DNA of 32,000 bases from Salegentibacter sp. Hel_I_6 (GCF_000745315.1 NZ_JQNQ01000001.1:3135127-3167126), one strand, 5' to 3'. Positions 226 to 21,022 are shown, numbered from the stretch's first letter. Translations and numbers: made by a program. Notes: a model not told the origin generated them from the sequence alone.

Positions 226-246
226 TTTTATTTGTTTTATTTGAGT

Positions 247-263
247 GCTTCGAATGCACTAAT
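247..263 (+). repeat. solo half-site of the GCCACGAAT-type repeat (gcttcgaatgcactaat)
   Basis: 15/17 identical to 353-369. The 14-mer cgaatgcactaatt is exactly repeated at 251-264 and 357-370. Confidence 0.7.
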
Positions 264-308
264 TTTTTATTAATAGTCTTCCGCCCAAATGTTTTTTAAT
301 CATACCTA

Positions 309-327
309 CAAGGTTTTGGAAACCTTG
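309..327. repeat. short hairpin caaggttt-tgg-aaaccttg
   Basis: Perfect 8-bp stem with a 3-nt loop, read directly from the trpB-trpF spacer. Confidence 0.6.
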
Positions 328-352
328 CAGGACTTCGGGTATAGTAGTTTTC

Positions 353-369
353 GCCACGAATGCACTAAT
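353..369 (+). repeat. solo half-site of the GCCACGAAT-type repeat (gccacgaatgcactaat)
   Basis: Same 17-mer family as 15516-15532 and the arms at 20027-20043 and 20419-20435. Confidence 0.7.
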
Positions 370-373
370 TTCT

Positions 374-461
374 ACATTGTTATTGCGAGGGCAGCGACCG
401 TAACAATCTTTTGCGATATTCAAACAAATGATTGCTTCTCCCTATCGGGATCGCAATGACG
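374..461. repeat. two GTCAT-type hairpin elements (374-408 degenerate, plus-oriented; 430-461 minus-oriented)
   Basis: The minus strand of 430-461 reads cgtcattgcgatcccgatagggagaagcaatc: outer stem attgc/gcaat with an inner tccc-gat-aggga hairpin. 374-408 carries cattgttattgcgagg...taacaatc. Confidence 0.7.
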
Positions 462-470
462 TAGTTATTT

Positions 471-3953: not shown

Positions 3954-5348
3954 TTATATATCTTCAGCGATATCCAATGCCTTGGTTAGCGCCCCTAGTT
4001 TATTGTAAACTTCCTGTAATTCGTTTTCTTCTACAGATTCTGAAACAACACCTGCGCCGGCTTGATAATGTAATTGATGATCTTTACTTACAAAAGATCT
4101 AATGATAATGGCGTGGTTAAAATTTCCGTGGAAATCCATAAACCCTATTGCCCCGCCGTAGGCATCACGATTTACATTTTCGTATTTTTCTATCAGCTTC
4201 ATCGCACTATGCTTAGGCGCGCCGCTTAAAGTTCCCGCCGGAAAAGTATCTGCTACCACCTGCATTGTAGGTGTTTTTGGATCTTTGGTGCCGGTAACTT
4301 TGCTTACTAAATGGATCACGTGGGAGAAAAACTGGATTTCTCTATATTTTTCCACTTTTACATTATTACCGTGTCGGCTTAAGTCGTTACGAGCCAGATC
4401 AACCAACATTACATGTTCGGCATTTTCCTTTTCATCGGCGGCAAGTTTTTTGGCTAGTTCAGCGTCTTCCTCATCATTTCCGGTACGTTTAAAAGTTCCG
4501 GCTATTGGATGGATTTCTGCCTGCCCGTCCTGAACCACCAGTTGGGCTTCAGGCGAACTTCCAAATATTTTAAAGTTTCCGTAGTCAAAATAGAAAAGGT
4601 AGGGCGAAGGATTTACGCTGCGTAAAGCGCGGTAAACATTGAATTCATCTCCCTTGAATTTCTGAGAAAATCTGCGCGAAAGCACAATTTGAAAAACGTC
4701 ACCACGATAGCAGTGCTTTTTCCCTAGGCTTACATTTTCCCTGAATTCTTCGTCGGTGAGGTTAGAAATTGGTTCCTGCTGACGTTCAAAATTATAGGTC
4801 GCGAAATTTTTGACTTTTATCAGTTGCTCGATTTCAGCGATCTTTGAATCGGTATCATAGCTATGATCAAAAATATAAGCTTCATTATTAAAATGATTTA
4901 TGGCGATAATATTTTGATAAACCGCGTAATAAATATCCGGAAGTTTAAGATCACCATTTCGTTTTTTAATCTCTAAATCTTCAAAATACCGAACTCCGTC
5001 ATAAGCGATATAGCCAAAGAGTCCGTTATTGATAAATTTAAAATCAGAATCTTCAGTTTGGAATTGTTTTGAAAATTCCTGGATTTGCTGGGGCACGTTA
5101 ACTCCAGGAGTGATCTCTGTTGTTTTTTTACTTCCGTCAGGAAAAACTTCGGTAATCACTTCGTTTTGAATCTTAATAGAAGCGATAGGATTACAGCATA
5201 TATACGAGAAACTATTGTCGTTGGCGTGATAGTCACTACTTTCCAGCAAGAGACTGTTAGGATATTTGTCCCGAACTTTTAAATAAACACTCACCGGTGT
5301 AATGGTATCTGCTAGGAGTTTTTTATGGGTGGTTTTTAGTTGGTACAT
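3954..5348 (-). CDS. trpE: anthranilate synthase component I
   Basis: 464 aa with LLESS near the N-terminus and C-terminal chorismate-binding motifs (GTLSGAPK, YGGAIGF, AGAGVV). First biosynthetic gene of the operon. Confidence 0.92.
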   Translation of the reverse strand: MYQLKTTHKKLLADTITPVSVYLKVRDKYPNSLLLESSDYHANDNSFSYICCNPIASIKIQNEVITEVFPDGSKKTTEITPGVNVPQQIQEFSKQFQTEDSDFKFINNGLFGYIAYDGVRYFEDLEIKKRNGDLKLPDIYYAVYQNIIAINHFNNEAYIFDHSYDTDSKIAEIEQLIKVKNFATYNFERQQEPISNLTDEEFRENVSLGKKHCYRGDVFQIVLSRRFSQKFKGDEFNVYRALRSVNPSPYLFYFDYGNFKIFGSSPEAQLVVQDGQAEIHPIAGTFKRTGNDEEDAELAKKLAADEKENAEHVMLVDLARNDLSRHGNNVKVEKYREIQFFSHVIHLVSKVTGTKDPKTPTMQVVADTFPAGTLSGAPKHSAMKLIEKYENVNRDAYGGAIGFMDFHGNFNHAIIIRSFVSKDHQLHYQAGAGVVSESVEENELQEVYNKLGALTKALDIAEDI

Positions 5349-5361
5349 GAATTATTCTTTT

Positions 5362-5401
5362 GTCTTTCCCGCGAAAGCGGGAGTCTATTTAGTATGTTTC
5401 T
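5362..5401. repeat. left copy of the direct repeat flanking the GIY-YIG gene (includes hairpin gtctttcccgcgaaagcgggagtc)
   Basis: gtctttcccgcgaaagcgggagtctatttagtatgtttct aligns with 5717-5760. Shared blocks are gggagtct, ttt, tat and tttct. Confidence 0.6.
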
Positions 5402-5408
5402 GTTTGAG

Positions 5409-5705
5409 TTATTTAAATCTTACAGTCAAATCTTCCCAATCGGGGTTGAAATCGTTTATCAGATTTATTTTCCAGAGTCGATTCCATTTTTTAAGTTGTT
5501 TTTCCCTTTTAATCGCCAACGACGGATATTCGAATTTTTCATAATATACTAGTTTATTAAGTCGGTATCTACTGCTAAAACTTTTTAGGTTTCGATTTCT
5601 ATGTTGATATAATCTTTGTTTCAGGTTTCTTGTAATCCCAATATATAGTGTTCCATATTTACGATTTGTAATGATGTAAACGTAATATTGGTAGTCTGTA
5701 TTCAT
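5409..5705 (-). CDS. small GIY-YIG (URI-domain) nuclease family protein
   Basis: 98 aa. YVYIITNRKYGTLYIGITRNLKQRLYQH gives the GIY...YIG pair followed by a conserved Arg. Size and layout match stand-alone COG2827-type proteins. Confidence 0.85.
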   Translation of the reverse strand: MNTDYQYYVYIITNRKYGTLYIGITRNLKQRLYQHRNRNLKSFSSRYRLNKLVYYEKFEYPSLAIKREKQLKKWNRLWKINLINDFNPDWEDLTVRFK

Positions 5706-5814: not shown

Positions 5815-5845
5815 AAAAAAAGGCTTGTCGTGAGACAAGCCTTTT
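5815..5845 (-). terminator. intrinsic terminator of the trp attenuator
   Basis: Minus strand reads AAAAGGCUUGUC-UCAC-GACAAGCC followed by seven U. The stem 5818-5829/5834-5845 is a perfect 12 bp (8-bp GC-rich core). It lies 29 nt after the leader stop codon. Confidence 0.8.
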
Positions 5846-5874
5846 GTATGAGATTATACTATAGCGATGTTACT

Positions 5875-5931
5875 TCACGACGTTTGACGTAAATTTTTCC
5901 ACCACCAGGTATTTGCTGTAATTGTTTTCAT
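5875..5931 (-). CDS. trpL: trp operon leader peptide, 18 aa, MKTITANTWWWKNLRQTS
   Basis: My reading of the minus strand: ATG 5931-5929, three consecutive TGG codons at 5907-5899, TGA at 5877-5875. Too short for the ORF track. An in-frame upstream ATG at 5964-5962 would give 29 aa (MKANNWHLLYFMKT...) with a fourth Trp. Confidence 0.75.
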   Translation of the reverse strand: MKTITANTWWWKNLRQTS

Positions 5932-5969
5932 AAAATATAATAAATGCCAATTATTGGCTTTCATTGCTT

Positions 5970-8349: not shown

Positions 8350-8514
8350 AGCCGGATTTACAATTTAGATCAAAATGAAATGTTAAATTTTTCCAGTAGG
8401 AATCGAAGGCAATTGGAAGCTCTGTTTTTTAAAACTTTCAATATCTTTACACTGAAAAATATATTAGGAATCACAGATCACCTTCATTAAGGGGATTATT
8501 TAAAAATAAAATTT

Positions 8515-8829
8515 ATGAAAGAACTTAATCAGGATGAATGGCAATCACAGCTGGAAAAAGATGAAAATGCAGTGATTTTAGACGTAAGAACCGAAGAAGA
8601 AGTAGAGGAAGGGTATATTCCTAAAGCTAAAAACCTTGATATTTATAAAGGTCAGGAATTTGTAAATGAAGTAGAAAAGCTGGATAAGGATAAAAATTAT
8701 TATATCTATTGCCGCTCCGGAAAGCGCAGTGCACAGGCCTGTACTATTTTAGACCAGATGGGATTTGCCAACACCTATAACCTTGAAGGAGGTTTTATGG
8801 AGTGGGATGGTGAGAAAACTGAGGATTAA
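8515..8829 (+). CDS. rhodanese-like domain protein
   Basis: 104 aa single rhodanese domain with active-site loop CRSGKRS. Confidence 0.85.
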   Translation: MKELNQDEWQSQLEKDENAVILDVRTEEEVEEGYIPKAKNLDIYKGQEFVNEVEKLDKDKNYYIYCRSGKRSAQACTILDQMGFANTYNLEGGFMEWDGEKTED

Positions 8830-15515: not shown

Positions 15516-15552
15516 GCCACGAATTCACTAATATTATTTGTGTATTCTTGGC
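15516..15552. repeat. empty 37-nt palindrome of the GCCACGAAT repeat family
   Basis: gccacgaattcactaat-att-atttgtgtattcttggc. The reverse complement of the right arm (gccaagaatacacaaat) is 16/17 identical to the left arm of the GxxExxY cassette at 20027-20043. Confidence 0.75.
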
Positions 15553-15573: not shown

Positions 15574-16632
15574 TTAACTCTTTTCCTCTTTATTAAAGTA
15601 AACAAGGTAATAGTACATTTGTTTCTCTTCGTCCCAGCCTTTTTCTACAAACTTATCGGCTGATTCTGCGTTTACAAAATCCATTTTAATCTGAATATGC
15701 GTATCAAGATTAATTACGCTCTTGATCTTTTTTCGCGCATCGGTTACCGCTTTGTTGGCAATGGGGAAATTAGTAAGATCTTCTATTTTATACTTAGGTG
15801 CTTTTTCGGTTTTATAATGCTGAAATTCGGGTAATAGTTCTGGATTATCAATTACTGAATTCAGAAAATTACTTTCTTCAAAATCGTCGTTTTTTGCGAA
15901 GTAATCCATACTTCGATTCATGAACATTACCTCTTCTTTTTTGTCTTCCGCAGGTAAAACCACGTCTTTAGCGAAGTTTTTACAGAAGTTAAGGTAACTT
16001 TTGGTGTTGTAATTCTCATCACGCATCACATCTACACCCAAAAAGTTCTCCAACCAGTATTTAGTATCGTACTTATTAGAATCTACCGAAAGGATTTTAT
16101 AACCTTCTTCCCGATTTTTATTAAAAATAAGCGCGCCTTTATCTAATTTATTGAGGTTGATTCCCTGCTGAACGATCATTTCTAGAATGCTGCCGTTTTC
16201 TTCAAACTGAAGGAAATCGTGTTTTAATTCAGATTTAAAAATTCCGATTCCTGAAACCTTTTCGTTATCTATTTGAAGGTTTTCGAAATAAACCACATAT
16301 ACCTCTCCGCTTTTAATATGCGGATGCGCAGATTGTTCAAACAACAAAGTGGTGATCTTTTTTGAAGCCTCATGAATGTTTGCAGGATCATCAAAAACCG
16401 CGTTTGCCAGATTGTATAATTCGTTGAATTCAAGATCGGTTTCGTGAGAAAAATTGAAGTAATTTTCTTCCTTTTCCCTAAATGGTTTTAGAAAATATTC
16501 CTTGATCAAAGGTGTGATCTCGTCATTTAACTGGTATGGTGCCGCAGAAAGAAAAATGTTCTCATTTCTACTTTTGTTCCCAACCCTATGAATAGAAAGG
16601 GACTCAATTTGCGCATTAAAAAGGTTGATCAT
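15574..16632 (-). CDS. nucleoid-associated protein, NdpA/YejK-like
   Basis: 352 aa. The N-terminal IESLSIHRVGNK motif and overall size resemble the 37-kDa nucleoid-associated protein family. Assigned from memory of the family. Confidence 0.6.
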   Translation of the reverse strand: MINLFNAQIESLSIHRVGNKSRNENIFLSAAPYQLNDEITPLIKEYFLKPFREKEENYFNFSHETDLEFNELYNLANAVFDDPANIHEASKKITTLLFEQSAHPHIKSGEVYVVYFENLQIDNEKVSGIGIFKSELKHDFLQFEENGSILEMIVQQGINLNKLDKGALIFNKNREEGYKILSVDSNKYDTKYWLENFLGVDVMRDENYNTKSYLNFCKNFAKDVVLPAEDKKEEVMFMNRSMDYFAKNDDFEESNFLNSVIDNPELLPEFQHYKTEKAPKYKIEDLTNFPIANKAVTDARKKIKSVINLDTHIQIKMDFVNAESADKFVEKGWDEEKQMYYYLVYFNKEEKS

Positions 16633-18445: not shown

Positions 18446-18478
18446 ATTTTTAAGTTGAAAGTTAAAAACATAAACTTC

Positions 18479-18541
18479 ACTACTCACTACTCACTACTCA
18501 CTACTCACTACTCACTACTCACTACTCACTACTCACTATTC
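18479..18541. repeat. heptanucleotide tandem repeat, 9 copies of ACTACTC (last copy ACTATTC)
   Basis: Read directly: eight perfect ACTACTC units plus one variant. On the minus strand these are GAGTAGT units. The array lies between the cca-like stop (18529-18531) and the ctaA start. Confidence 0.95.
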
Positions 18542-19953
18542 ACTGATAATCCCAATTCTCTTCCTTTCTTAAGCATTAAATTCCTCGCAGCTTCATGTTC
18601 GTTTGGAATTTCCCCTTCAAGAATTGCTTCTTTAATGGTGTCTTTAATAATACCGATTTCACGGGAAGGTCTTATATTAAAAGTTTCCATAATTTCTTCA
18701 CCGGTAACCGGAGGTTGGAAATTACGAACGTGGTCACGTTCTTCCACCTCTTTCATTTTGGTGCGGACCACTTTAAAATTATTATGGTATTTCTTAAATC
18801 GATTCGGATTTTTCGTGGTGATATCAGCTTCGCAAAGCGTCATTAAATCTTCAATATCTTCCCCAGCGTCAAAAATAAGTCGGCGTACGGCAGAATCGGT
18901 TACGTCGTTGTCCACAATAGCAATTGGCCGCGAACTCATTAAAACCAATTTCTGCACATATTTCATCTTGTCATTTAATGGGAGACGAAGCCGTTTAAAT
19001 AGTTTAAAAACCATTTTTGCGCCAACAAACTCGTGCCCGTGAAAAGTCCACCCAATTTTCTTGTGAAACTTTTTAGTAGGAGCCTTACCAATATCATGCA
19101 ATAAAGCAGCCCAGCGCAGCCAAAGATCACCAGTATTTTCCGCGATATTATCTACCACTTCTAAAGTATGCCAAAAATTATCTTTGTGCTTTTGGCCTTC
19201 AATTTCGTCAATACCTTCCAGAGCAGTAAGCTCCGGTAAGATGATAGGAAGTAATCCGGTTTTATGTAGTAGCGAAAAGCCTTTTGAAGGTTTTTTGGCC
19301 AGCATTATTTTATGCAGCTCGTCGGTAATTCTTTCTTTAGAAATAATCTTGATGCGTTTCTTATTTCTTGTAATCGCATCTAAAGACTCTTTTTCAATCT
19401 TAAAATTTAGCTGTGTCGCAAAGCGAATAGCACGAAGCATTCGCAATGGATCATCAGAATAAGTAATATTGGGATCCAGTGGGGTTTTGATGATTTTAGA
19501 ATTTAGATCCTCAATTCCGTCAAAAGGATCTAAAAGATTTCCGAAGTTATCTTCATTCAAACCAAGCGCCAGTGCATTTATGGTGAAATCGCGCCGATTT
19601 TGGTCGTCTTCCAAACTGCCGTCTTCCACAATAGGTTTGCGACTATCTTTTTGATAACTTTCTTTACGTGCGCCCACAAACTCGATTTCCATATCAAAAG
19701 CACGCAGCATTGCCGTACCATAGTTTTTGAAAACCTGGACTTTGGGTTTGTGCGGAAGTATTTCTGCAACTTTTTTCGCAAGTTCAATGCCGCTTCCTAC
19801 CGCAACAATGTCAATATCTTTGGGTTCTCCTCGCTGTAAGATATGATCGCGAACAAAGCCTCCAATAACATAGCTTTCAAGTTTTATTTCCTCCGAGGCC
19901 TGGGTAATGACCCTGAATATATTGTGCGATAAAGCGCCTTTATAATTCTTCAC
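18529..19953 (-). CDS. CCA-adding enzyme / poly(A) polymerase-family tRNA nucleotidyltransferase with HD domain
   Basis: 474 aa. GGFVRD, DIDIV and RRDFTINAL motifs in the nucleotidyltransferase head. HDIGK in the C-terminal HD domain. Confidence 0.85.
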   Translation of the reverse strand: MKNYKGALSHNIFRVITQASEEIKLESYVIGGFVRDHILQRGEPKDIDIVAVGSGIELAKKVAEILPHKPKVQVFKNYGTAMLRAFDMEIEFVGARKESYQKDSRKPIVEDGSLEDDQNRRDFTINALALGLNEDNFGNLLDPFDGIEDLNSKIIKTPLDPNITYSDDPLRMLRAIRFATQLNFKIEKESLDAITRNKKRIKIISKERITDELHKIMLAKKPSKGFSLLHKTGLLPIILPELTALEGIDEIEGQKHKDNFWHTLEVVDNIAENTGDLWLRWAALLHDIGKAPTKKFHKKIGWTFHGHEFVGAKMVFKLFKRLRLPLNDKMKYVQKLVLMSSRPIAIVDNDVTDSAVRRLIFDAGEDIEDLMTLCEADITTKNPNRFKKYHNNFKVVRTKMKEVEERDHVRNFQPPVTGEEIMETFNIRPSREIGIIKDTIKEAILEGEIPNEHEAARNLMLKKGRELGLSVNSE

Positions 19954-20026: not shown

Positions 20027-20043
20027 GCCACGAATACACAAAT
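20027..20043. repeat. left arm of the 17-nt inverted repeat bracketing the GxxExxY gene (gccacgaatacacaaat)
   Basis: 16/17 complementary to 20419-20435. Ends 2 nt before the stop codon at 20046-20048. Confidence 0.85.
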
Positions 20044-20045
20044 TT

Positions 20046-20417
20046 TTATAGCACAATTCTTTTATGGTCTAGTAAATCCTTGTGGAAGTTTGCTAATGCT
20101 AACCTGTTTTCTGAAACCTTTAAATAATTAATACACTGCGCTATATGCTTATCGTGAATATTATCAACAGATTTTATTTCTAAAATTATTTTATCAAAAA
20201 GAATGAAATCAGCATAAAACTTGTGACTAAGAATAGTTCCTTTATAAGAAACTGAGTATTCTTTTTCTCTTTCAAAAGGAATATTCAGCGAACTAAACTC
20301 CAGTTCTAATGCATCTTTATAAACTATTTCAGAAAATCCACTGCCTAAATAATTATATACATTGAATAATGCTCCAACAATGGCATAACTTTCGTCTTTA
20401 TATATAATATCGGCCAT
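20046..20417 (-). CDS. GxxExxY protein (PD-(D/E)XK nuclease-like small protein)
   Basis: 123 aa. GFSEIVY matches the GxxExxY signature, and ADFILFDKIILEIK resembles the D...E.K nuclease-core motif of this family. Confidence 0.85.
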   Translation of the reverse strand: MADIIYKDESYAIVGALFNVYNYLGSGFSEIVYKDALELEFSSLNIPFEREKEYSVSYKGTILSHKFYADFILFDKIILEIKSVDNIHDKHIAQCINYLKVSENRLALANFHKDLLDHKRIVL

Positions 20418-20418
20418 A

Positions 20419-20435
20419 ATTCGTGTATTCGTGGC
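20419..20435. repeat. right arm of the inverted repeat (attcgtgtattcgtggc)
   Basis: Reverse complement is gccacgaatacacgaat. Begins 2 nt upstream of the ATG at 20417-20415. Confidence 0.85.
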
Positions 20436-20443
20436 AGAATAAT

Positions 20444-21022
20444 CTATTTCCTAATCACTTTTACCTTCCCATCGTTACTTAATTTAATGATGGCGGAGGG
20501 TTTAGCCGATTTTTTATTTTTTTGCAAATTTACTACATAGTCCACACCCTCTAAAATTTCGGGGCTAATTTCGTCGAAAGATCCGGGTGTTTTTTCACCG
20601 CTAATGTTGGCCGAGGTAGAAACGATAGGTTTTCGAAATCTTTTTGCCAAATCATTGCTGAATTTATCTTTGGAAACTCTAATTGCCAAAGAATTATCGG
20701 CGGCGATCAGGTTTTCGGCTACGCGAATAGGATCGTCGTAAATAATTGTAGTAGGTTTTTTCGCAAATTTGAGAATATCGTAAGCTACTTCAGGAACATC
20801 TTCTACAAATTGATTCAGCATTTTATAGTCTGAAACCAGGCAAATAAGCGCCTGACTTTCCTTACGTTTTTTAAGCGCATACACTTTTTCTACGGCTCCA
20901 GCATTTGTGGCATCACAGCCAATTCCCCAAACCGTATCGGTAGGGTAGAGTATAAGTCCGCCACGTTTTAGGGTTGCAAGGGCGTTTTGCATTTCGGTTT
21001 TAATATCTTCCATAAAGGACAT
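20444..21022 (-). CDS. tsaC: L-threonylcarbamoyladenylate synthase (YrdC/TsaC family)
   Basis: 192 aa. LILYPTDTVWGIGCDA and SANISG motifs of the YrdC/Sua5 domain. Overlaps the upstream glycosyltransferase gene by 23 nt. Confidence 0.85.
   Translation of the reverse strand: MSFMEDIKTEMQNALATLKRGGLILYPTDTVWGIGCDATNAGAVEKVYALKKRKESQALICLVSDYKMLNQFVEDVPEVAYDILKFAKKPTTIIYDDPIRVAENLIAADNSLAIRVSKDKFSNDLAKRFRKPIVSTSANISGEKTPGSFDEISPEILEGVDYVVNLQKNKKSAKPSAIIKLSNDGKVKVIRK

Follow-up and report, generated by a model that had tools for sequence, protein, structure and literature searches.

Genes of the GxxExxY (PDDEXK_3) nuclease family are accompanied across the Bacteroidota by copies of a short repeat built of ATTCGTG heptads, and this gene-repeat pairing points, by analogy, to an undescribed counterpart of REP/RAYT systems. 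On balance, we favor the reading in which a REP-like family of heptad repeats has its cognate nuclease or binding protein in GxxExxY, with an inferred action of the protein on the repeat. A more specific version holds that GxxExxY/PDDEXK_3 proteins are dedicated non-HUH nucleases that have co-evolved with the ATTCGTG REP-like repeats of Bacteroidota and propagate or process them, and that the split hairpin described below is ancestral; we place its prospects a little short of even. The sequence-only reading that drew attention to the gene knew of no published description of its architecture, and full-text literature searches returned none. No report tying GxxExxY, PF13366, or PDDEXK_3 to repeats was found in the full texts searched, from which database comments and subscription journals may differ, and neither the heptad motif nor a PD-(D/E)XK partner was found in the literature on REP, RAYT, and REPIN elements in Bacteroidetes or Flavobacterium.

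Repeat arms and enclosed gene in Salegentibacter sp. Hel_I_6

The window is the whole 32-kb stretch of the Salegentibacter sp. Hel_I_6 genome that was analyzed, and all coordinates count from its first nucleotide. The gene, its arms, and its neighbors are arranged as follows.

18477..18544, minus strand: (TAGTGAG) x 9.7 heptad microsatellite, where the cca stop meets the ctaA start
18529..19953, minus strand: CCA-adding/poly(A)-polymerase-like gene, downstream neighbor of the GxxExxY gene
20027..20044, minus strand: downstream arm, a motif copy of 28.1 bits
20046..20417, minus strand: GxxExxY/PDDEXK_3 gene with profile matches, 123 aa, stop codon at 20046-20048
20418..20435, minus strand: upstream arm in gene orientation, one two-heptad motif copy of 31.0 of 31.8 bits
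20444..21022, minus strand: tsaC (TIGR00057, 142.9 bits, cut-off 123.2)

A repeat search of the window identified the inverted-repeat arms at 20027-20044 and 20418-20435 as 18 nt long and 17/18 (94%) complementary, with 373 nt between them. The sequence-only reading had described a 17-nt inverted repeat, 16/17 complementary, around a GxxExxY ORF of 123 aa wedged between tsaC and a cca-like gene. The search returned this repeat at the same position and with the same complementarity, the ORF is a TIGR04256 match, and the neighbors were corroborated by their coordinates and, for tsaC, by a profile match. The gaps of 2 nt that it gave on both sides held as near-exact enclosure but not to the nucleotide: 17-nt arms leave 1-2 nt, and 18-nt arms directly abut the ATG (0 nt) and stand 1 nt away from the stop codon. 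On the coding (minus) strand, the upstream arm reads GCCACGAATACACGAAT(T), starts 8 nt past the tsaC stop codon, and ends 0-1 nt ahead of the ATG, and the downstream arm reads (A)ATTTGTGTATTCGTGGC, starts 1-2 nt past the stop codon, and lies 73 nt ahead of the cca-like start. The (TAGTGAG) microsatellite occupies the slot in which other genera have a motif copy after cca; its kinship to the motif is uncertain.

Each arm is a copy of a 17-nt motif, ATTCGTG-N-ATTCGTG-GC, consisting of two tandem heptads followed by GC. Allowing up to 3 mismatches, the 17-mer matches the window 5 times, whereas shuffled sequence gives an expectation of 0.00. With a weight matrix derived from related loci, six copies in the window score 10 bits or more, compared with 0-1 in shuffled sequence; the arm repeat is therefore not a product of chance. 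The following copies, absent from the sequence-only reading, lie elsewhere in the window.

15516..15552, no strand assigned: gene-less motif hairpin of two inverted copies (15516-15532 and 15536-15552) with a 3-nt loop, convergent genes on either side
353..369, minus strand: solo motif copy in the trpF-trpB spacer, 28.8 bits
247..263, minus strand: degenerate motif copy in the trpF-trpB spacer, 11.8 bits, in direct orientation and 106 nt from the copy at 353-369

The hairpin at 15516-15552 resembles a terminator of the gene at 15574..16632 on the minus strand, since TTTTTTT follows it on that strand, and it was missed by a simple terminator scanner because of mismatches in its stem. A hairpin followed by a T-run, as in an intrinsic terminator, was found both here (minus strand) and in the Salegentibacter maritimus orthologue, whereas the split pair around the GxxExxY gene has an A-rich tract and no T-run after its 3' arm. 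At the orthologous site, S. maritimus was the only one of the relatives compared to have a motif hairpin, and S. echinorum, another Salegentibacter, and Salinimicrobium carry unrelated terminator hairpins there. Motif copies thus turn over, as seen at the one site compared, where the hairpin is present in two Salegentibacter species only and the site is otherwise conserved. Rfam has no family that matches the unit or the hairpins, the only hits being a Flavo-1 RNA beside one hairpin and, in another part of the window, Bacteroid-trp, and a sigma-70 and terminator scan was uninformative, as expected for Bacteroidota.

Linkage of the gene and the heptad motif across lineages

We scanned one genome per species for orthologs and obtained 80 Flavobacteriaceae loci with 66-88% amino-acid identity, to which the window adds the 81st. 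Inverted motif copies were identified on both sides of the gene within 250 nt in 67/81 loci, and at least 1 copy was present in 77/81. In 18 of the 81 loci, neither arm is more than 10 nt away from its start or stop codon; in many loci, arms and codons are separated by 20-150 nt, or the split pair is replaced by direct copies or by complete hairpins. In each of the two arms, 14 of the 17 motif positions hardly vary among genera that share no other alignable intergenic DNA. Upstream tsaC together with downstream cca was found in 61/80 loci and downstream cca in 73/80; outside the tsaC-cca slot, the motif still adjoins the gene in L046, L047, and L052, with inverted pairs in the last two. The median identity to the respective window protein is 71.8% for GxxExxY; in the same set of genomes, tsaC has 60.5% and cca 74.1%. 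A scan of the window and flanking sequence, about 790 kb in all, revealed no second GxxExxY copy. The synteny, the single copy in the sequence scanned, and the housekeeping-level identity indicate that the Flavobacteriaceae unit is old, vertically inherited, and under purifying selection, and that it has not been recently mobile.

The motif concentrates at the gene: more than 1 kb away from it, only 9 copies were found in 574 kb of flanks, six of them just after cca, and the gene itself is usually adjoined by 2 or more. Several loci carry arrays beside the gene. Flavobacterium nitrogenifigens (L078) has a 131-nt x 5.9 array, in Algibacter pacificus (L009) the motif borders five units around the gene, each about 115-130 nt long, and further motif arrays were found in L203, L083, and L207. 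An integron attC or CRISPR-like reading of these arrays was dropped, as neither an integrase nor cas genes occur in the vicinity and the palindromic units lack unique spacers. One Flavobacterium-like contig (L105), a chance find, has a cca junction that lacks the gene and keeps a solo arm with no intact hairpin.

Position 8 of the motif was considered as a genome-specific marker and rejected, because dispersed copies often differ from gene-flanking ones in the same locus. Three Flavobacterium species with a variant motif have in common a protein that is extended at the C terminus and altered at S10; the species probably form one clade and so represent one event at most.

The linkage extends to distant members of the family and to unrelated gene neighborhoods. 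Subfamily 2, with 80-85% identity across Bacteroidales, Chitinophagales, Cytophagales, and Chlorobi (including Taibaiella and Chryseolinea), also contains one of the three metagenome genes (L174), and in 7/7 unrelated, hand-picked neighborhoods the two-heptad motif adjoins its gene as hairpins or arrays. These contexts include positions after rpsF-rpsR-rplI, by a kinase, between two RNA methyltransferases, and in a helicase/methylase cluster. Subfamily 3 proteins share about 40% identity with the window protein. In 6/6 hand-picked contexts, from Echinicola, Parabacteroides, a Calditrichota bin, and three others, their genes are flanked by a repeat that is related to the two-heptad motif but different from it, in which AATTCGTG recurs three times at a period of 9-10 nt and the end is GTGGA(C/T); the subfamily 2 and 3 contexts together amount to 13 hand-picked look-ups. 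In one subfamily 3 locus (L207), the right arm starts 2-3 nt past the stop codon, similar to the window. The two repeat variants do not mix: near subfamilies 1 and 2 and on motif-selected contigs, 437 two-heptad and 0 three-heptad copies were counted, and near subfamily 3, 24 three-heptad and 0 two-heptad copies. This linkage, independent of context and co-varying with the protein subfamily, is the strongest evidence for a functional tie between protein and repeat.

When the GxxExxY genes of relatives were checked for the same inverted repeat, the motif or its variant was found in Flavobacteriaceae and in the distant subfamilies; other GxxExxY genes were not repeat-less, nor did the gene at the tsaC-cca junction stand without repeats in all relatives. 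The suggestion in the sequence-only reading of a discrete cassette with terminal inverted repeats holds in part. The unit is recurrent, in 67/81 loci and also in other neighborhoods and subfamilies, but its arms belong to a dispersed family and it has no recent mobility.

To obtain a view of the motif away from the gene, we scanned metagenome contigs for exact matches and obtained at least 120 motif-bearing stretches spanning 755 kb. The 120 stretches listed contain at least 243 copies with no more than 2 mismatches and at least 65 convergent motif pairs, mostly with loops of 1-60 nt; loops of up to 60 nt were found in 52 of the 65 pairs listed, and 22 of these 52 are perfectly complementary (17/17). 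Among the copies in the stretches listed, 181/187 lie outside long ORFs, and the genes flanking the motif are convergent in 46 cases (enriched), tandem in 64, and divergent in 18 (depleted). The usual form of the motif is an extragenic palindrome folding into a tight hairpin, of which the gene-flanking pair is a special case, and the arms are members of a dispersed, extragenic, mostly hairpin-forming repeat family and not cassette-specific ends. Only 3 of the 120 motif stretches listed, which are contig stretches and not whole genomes, have a GxxExxY gene on the same stretch, from which a rough and indirect estimate of about 40 motif loci per gene copy follows. The taxonomic range seen for the motif covers Flavobacteriaceae, Bacteroidales, Chitinophagales, Cytophagales, Chlorobi, and Calditrichota contigs.

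Nuclease, transcript, and rival readings

The 123-aa protein, 100% identical to the annotated protein of Salegentibacter sp. Hel_I_6, matches TIGR04256 (GxxExxY; E 1.5e-34, 118.8 bits, cut-off 35) and PF13366 (PDDEXK_3; E 1.7e-31, 109.5 bits, cut-off 22) in profile searches, and no other Pfam family, Y1_Tnp included, was matched in it. The PD-(D/E)XK residues are intact, with G27-x-x-E30-x-x-Y33, D70, E80, and K82 invariant in 43 aligned sequences, the first of these reading G27-F-S-E30-I-V-Y33 in the window protein, and the same catalytic residues were seen by eye in subfamilies 2 and 3. The AlphaFold2 model has a moderate pLDDT of 71.6 and the helix and strand order expected for a restriction-endonuclease-like alpha-beta-beta-beta-alpha-beta fold. 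The top Foldseek hits in the PDB are weak (E >=8e-3, with no match at E < 1e-3) and are PD-(D/E)XK nucleases, namely Cas4 SSO0001, I-Bth0305I, Bax1, and the R2 endonuclease domain; a sequence search of solved structures gave no meaningful match to the protein, and no relatives were found in viral contigs. The family comprises 8,219 clusters at 50% identity (E <=1e-3), and the function of PF13366/TIGR04256 is given as "Unknown" (PMC3424549). With its synteny, its single copy in about 790 kb, and its invariant catalytic residues, the gene behaves as a domesticated enzyme.

Under the favored reading, GxxExxY would recognize the heptad arms sequence-specifically, as a DNA or an RNA hairpin, and would cleave or process the hairpins so recognized, and this activity would drive the spread and maintenance of the repeat. 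The flanking copies would be the ends of an ancestral unit that is now fixed in the Flavobacteriaceae tsaC-cca slot. Copy-and-paste in the HUH style is not simply transferable to such an enzyme, since PD-(D/E)XK nucleases cut and normally do not rejoin strands. Against the reading stand the modest estimated copy number, at about 40 motif loci per gene copy below that of classical REPs, and the near-invariance of the motif across the phylum, which could mean a host function, for example as a terminator or RNA-stability element, served by another factor.

The sequence-only reading also proposed that 5'-3' pairing in the transcript hides the start region. Folded as RNA, the 433-nt unit has minimum free energy (MFE) and centroid structures (z = -3.87) in which the arms pair around the whole ORF and the stem takes in the AUG. 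Upstream of both arms there is a candidate promoter.

20525..20532, minus strand: TAAATTTG, a Bacteroidetes -7-type box and candidate promoter, inside the tsaC 3' end and about 108 nt upstream of the ATG

A transcript containing both arms is plausible given this predicted TAAATTTG box, and Flavobacterium loci with no tsaC still contain the same string, 'tatgttgtaaatttgca'. Across loci, 90.6% of cells are paired compared with 88.8% after shuffling, a slight excess, and a compensatory change from G-C to A-U in the terminal pair was found in three loci. Covariation as proof of a selected RNA stem was rejected: of the three variable motif positions, which are unpaired in about 45% of loci, positions 4 and 12 have no excess complementarity (p = 0.18 and 0.22), and the excess at position 8 (p = 0.0004) is also seen in unrelated hairpins and tracks lineage. 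Pairing alone does not explain the conservation, since 14/17 positions are fixed and the variable ones are so often unpaired. Occlusion of the start codon is therefore thermodynamically plausible as a predicted fold, but it is the motif sequence and not the pairing that is conserved. It is likely a secondary consequence and not the primary reason for the architecture; arm pairing in the transcript would bury the start codon and so probably keep expression of the nuclease low.

The main rival keeps recognition between nuclease and repeat and reverses which part is mobile. The GxxExxY gene would be a homing cassette whose product cuts the loops of heptad hairpins, with the ORF copied into the break, so that each copy would come to lie between the arms of a hairpin already present, and the hairpins would be its target and not its product. 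The ORF does fill the loop position, with gaps between arm and codon of a few nucleotides that are within ordinary loop lengths, the gene is found in many unrelated neighborhoods in other orders and is absent from the cca junction of one Flavobacterium-like contig, target specificity would be expected to give each subfamily its own repeat variant, and a homing endonuclease, I-Bth0305I, is among the weak Foldseek matches, as is the R2 endonuclease domain. An active invader is however a poor fit to Flavobacteriaceae synteny, the lack of a second copy, and housekeeping-level conservation, and the gene occurs at only 3 of the 120 motif loci listed. Arms of 17 nt are very short homology for repair-mediated copying, and arrays right beside genes look more like proliferation of the repeat than like a target. 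The gene-less contig itself retains a solo arm and no intact hairpin, and this junction fits neither the RAYT-like nor the homing model cleanly. We regard homing as unlikely, though deserving of weight.

An origin of the arms purely as an RNA cis element of a tsaC-GxxExxY-cca transcript, by AUG occlusion or as a double-stranded site that excises or silences the message, appears quite improbable to us. The dispersed hairpins would then be ordinary terminators or RNA-stability elements and the protein unrelated to the repeat. The predicted folds and the promoter box agree with such an element, as do the slight pairing excess and the three compensatory terminal pairs, and gene-less hairpins favor the 3' ends of genes, at least 2 being followed by a T-run and one lying directly after a Flavo-1 sRNA. 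A stem kept for pairing alone should nevertheless drift with compensation, whereas 14/17 positions are fixed phylum-wide and the rest are unpaired about 45% of the time; in many loci the arms and codons are 20-150 nt apart, or direct copies or complete hairpins take the place of a single split pair, and the matched repeat variant in unrelated neighborhoods and beside a distant subfamily goes unexplained. Coincidence, as a chance inverted repeat or a gene caught between two generic terminators, draws on the AT-rich composition of the region and nothing else. It is refuted to the point of being negligible by the zero chance matches expected, by recurrence in 67/81 loci and 13 further independent contexts, and by a split pair with no T-run after its 3' arm.

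If the link between GxxExxY and the repeat is functional, thousands of uncharacterized small nucleases gain a testable substrate in the heptad hairpin, and the matched pairs of subfamily and repeat variant offer natural tests of recognition specificity. The REP/RAYT relation has so far been tied to HUH transposases, and the favored reading, if true, would add an independent origin with an enzyme of restriction-endonuclease fold and would explain a highly conserved intergenic motif of Bacteroidota, Chlorobi, and Calditrichota contigs. The motif is also useful as an annotation flag for terminator-like hairpins and GxxExxY loci.

Relation to known systems

In the fold-back inhibition of IS10, IS50, and IS200, a read-through transcript can have its start codon hidden when the start region pairs with sequence near the element end. 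The GxxExxY start codon would likewise be hidden by the predicted long-range stem, with the differences that the pairing partner lies past the stop codon, about 375 nt away, and that both partners are copies of a dispersed repeat. A likeness to MITEs in terminal inverted repeats is given by the units of about 115-130 nt in Algibacter pacificus (L009), where the 17-nt motif forms these repeats; seen in this way, the gene-carrying unit resembles a possible "autonomous" counterpart of these units. Unlike MITEs, however, the unit has no transposase of a known family, and most heptad copies form plain hairpins whose loops measure 1-60 nt.

A coding element between palindrome arms, with a nuclease encoded inside, is shared with the REP-targeting insertion sequences IS1397 and ISPpu9/ISPpu10 (PMC8450116) and with homing endonuclease genes. 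The GxxExxY insert differs from the former in being a bare ORF with no IS ends and no transposase (PMC8450116), and from both in the fixation of the Flavobacteriaceae gene at one syntenic site and in the lack of any second copy in the sequence scanned.

The closest parallel is with REP/REPIN-RAYT systems, whose hallmarks are a dispersed palindrome, an inherited enzyme gene bracketed by it, clusters adjacent to that gene, and matched subfamilies of enzyme and repeat (PMC2817692, PMC3479197, PMC5581495). GxxExxY is not a RAYT, since it lacks an HUH/Y1 domain (no Y1_Tnp match), and the analogy is functional only: the protein is a PD-(D/E)XK nuclease of about 124 aa (PF13366) and not an HUH/Y1 transposase. 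The repeats differ as well. The heptad arm consists of tandem 7-nt units where the REP is a palindrome tagged with GTAG/CGTC, the heptad motif is conserved phylum-wide where REPs are usually species- or genus-specific, and its copy number seems lower than the classical >100 per genome of REPs, at about 40 loci per gene copy in a contig-based estimate. The likenesses concern the organization of the system. As with REPs and REPINs, the heptad motif is a short, dispersed extragenic palindrome (PMC2817692, PMC3479197, PMC5581495), and as in REPINs its usual form is two inverted copies with a short spacer. Like a RAYT gene, the GxxExxY gene is vertically inherited and flanked by inverted copies, with no second copy in the roughly 790 kb scanned, and clusters of the repeat adjoin it. 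Protein and repeat are also matched in the way of RAYTs, the two-heptad form ending in GTGGC occurring with subfamilies 1 and 2 and the three-heptad form ending in GTGGA with subfamily 3, with no cross-occurrence.

Sequences around the cca gene

A string with a promoter-type box recurs in the window and in two other loci:
Window 20525-20532 (minus strand), L078 about 4850-4870 and L105 about 8470-8490: 'tatgt(a/t)gtaaatttgca' with a TAnnTTTG promoter-type box, in the window within the tsaC 3' end.

Flavobacterium loci lacking tsaC still have the string upstream of GxxExxY/cca, and this sequence conservation suggests an internal promoter. L105, a Flavobacterium-like metagenome contig, has a yaaA-like/cca junction without any GxxExxY gene (8380-8560), with one solo right arm, the motif copy otherwise found on the stop-codon side of GxxExxY, left directly before cca.

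The slot behind cca is occupied in the window by a simple repeat:
Window 18477-18544 (minus strand): 7-nt microsatellite, (TAGTGAG) x 9.7, spanning both the stop codon of cca and the start of ctaA.

This slot is the position of a motif copy in several other genera, and a long (G)ATTCGTG microsatellite was identified in L072, at a site different from that of the cca/ctaA microsatellite; simple-repeat expansion of the heptad is thus possible.

Variant and interrupted arms

The arms of three Flavobacterium species (L059, L076, and L077; around 4930-5420) carry the variant motif AATCNGYGAATCYGYGGY. All three GxxExxY proteins are extended by 2-3 residues at the C-terminus, and S10, otherwise invariant, is changed in two of the three. 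The three loci probably form one clade, and the variant motif together with the protein changes therefore counts as a single event. Downstream of the subfamily-3 gene (a GxxExxY approximately 40% identical to the window protein) in L214 and L215, the three-heptad right arm is split at 1873-2060 by short GC-rich inserts between heptads, for example ttcgtgtaaattaccttcggtgtgagctgcgccgttcgtg, which look like nested small insertions.

Motif copies, RNA elements and other palindromes

Two structured RNAs were annotated:
L124 2889-3029: Flavo-1 sRNA (RF01705, 62.6 bits).
Window 5834-5951 (minus strand): Bacteroid-trp leader RNA (RF01692, 68.3 bits).

A perfect motif hairpin lies 14 nt past the Flavo-1 sRNA and may constitute its 3' end. 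The Bacteroid-trp leader shares the window with trpF and trpB, whose spacer (window 230-470, inside the trp operon) is packed with repeats: the motif is present twice, in direct orientation, alongside two further palindromes, cctgcaaggtttccaaaaccttgtagg and attgcga...tcgcaat. In L005, ggttttagaaccttgtagg, similar to the first of these palindromes, adjoins a motif copy.

A possible second small-protein family inside a split palindrome

A Calditrichota contig that also carries a subfamily-3 GxxExxY harbors a further gene:
L207 440-1200: PF05635 (23S_rRNA_IVP, four-helix-bundle) gene.

It is bracketed by a purine-rich tract on one side and a pyrimidine-rich tract on the other; the two tracts resemble an inverted repeat of a kind other than that flanking GxxExxY. 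This arrangement hints that PF05635, another enigmatic small-protein family, may also be placed inside a split palindrome.
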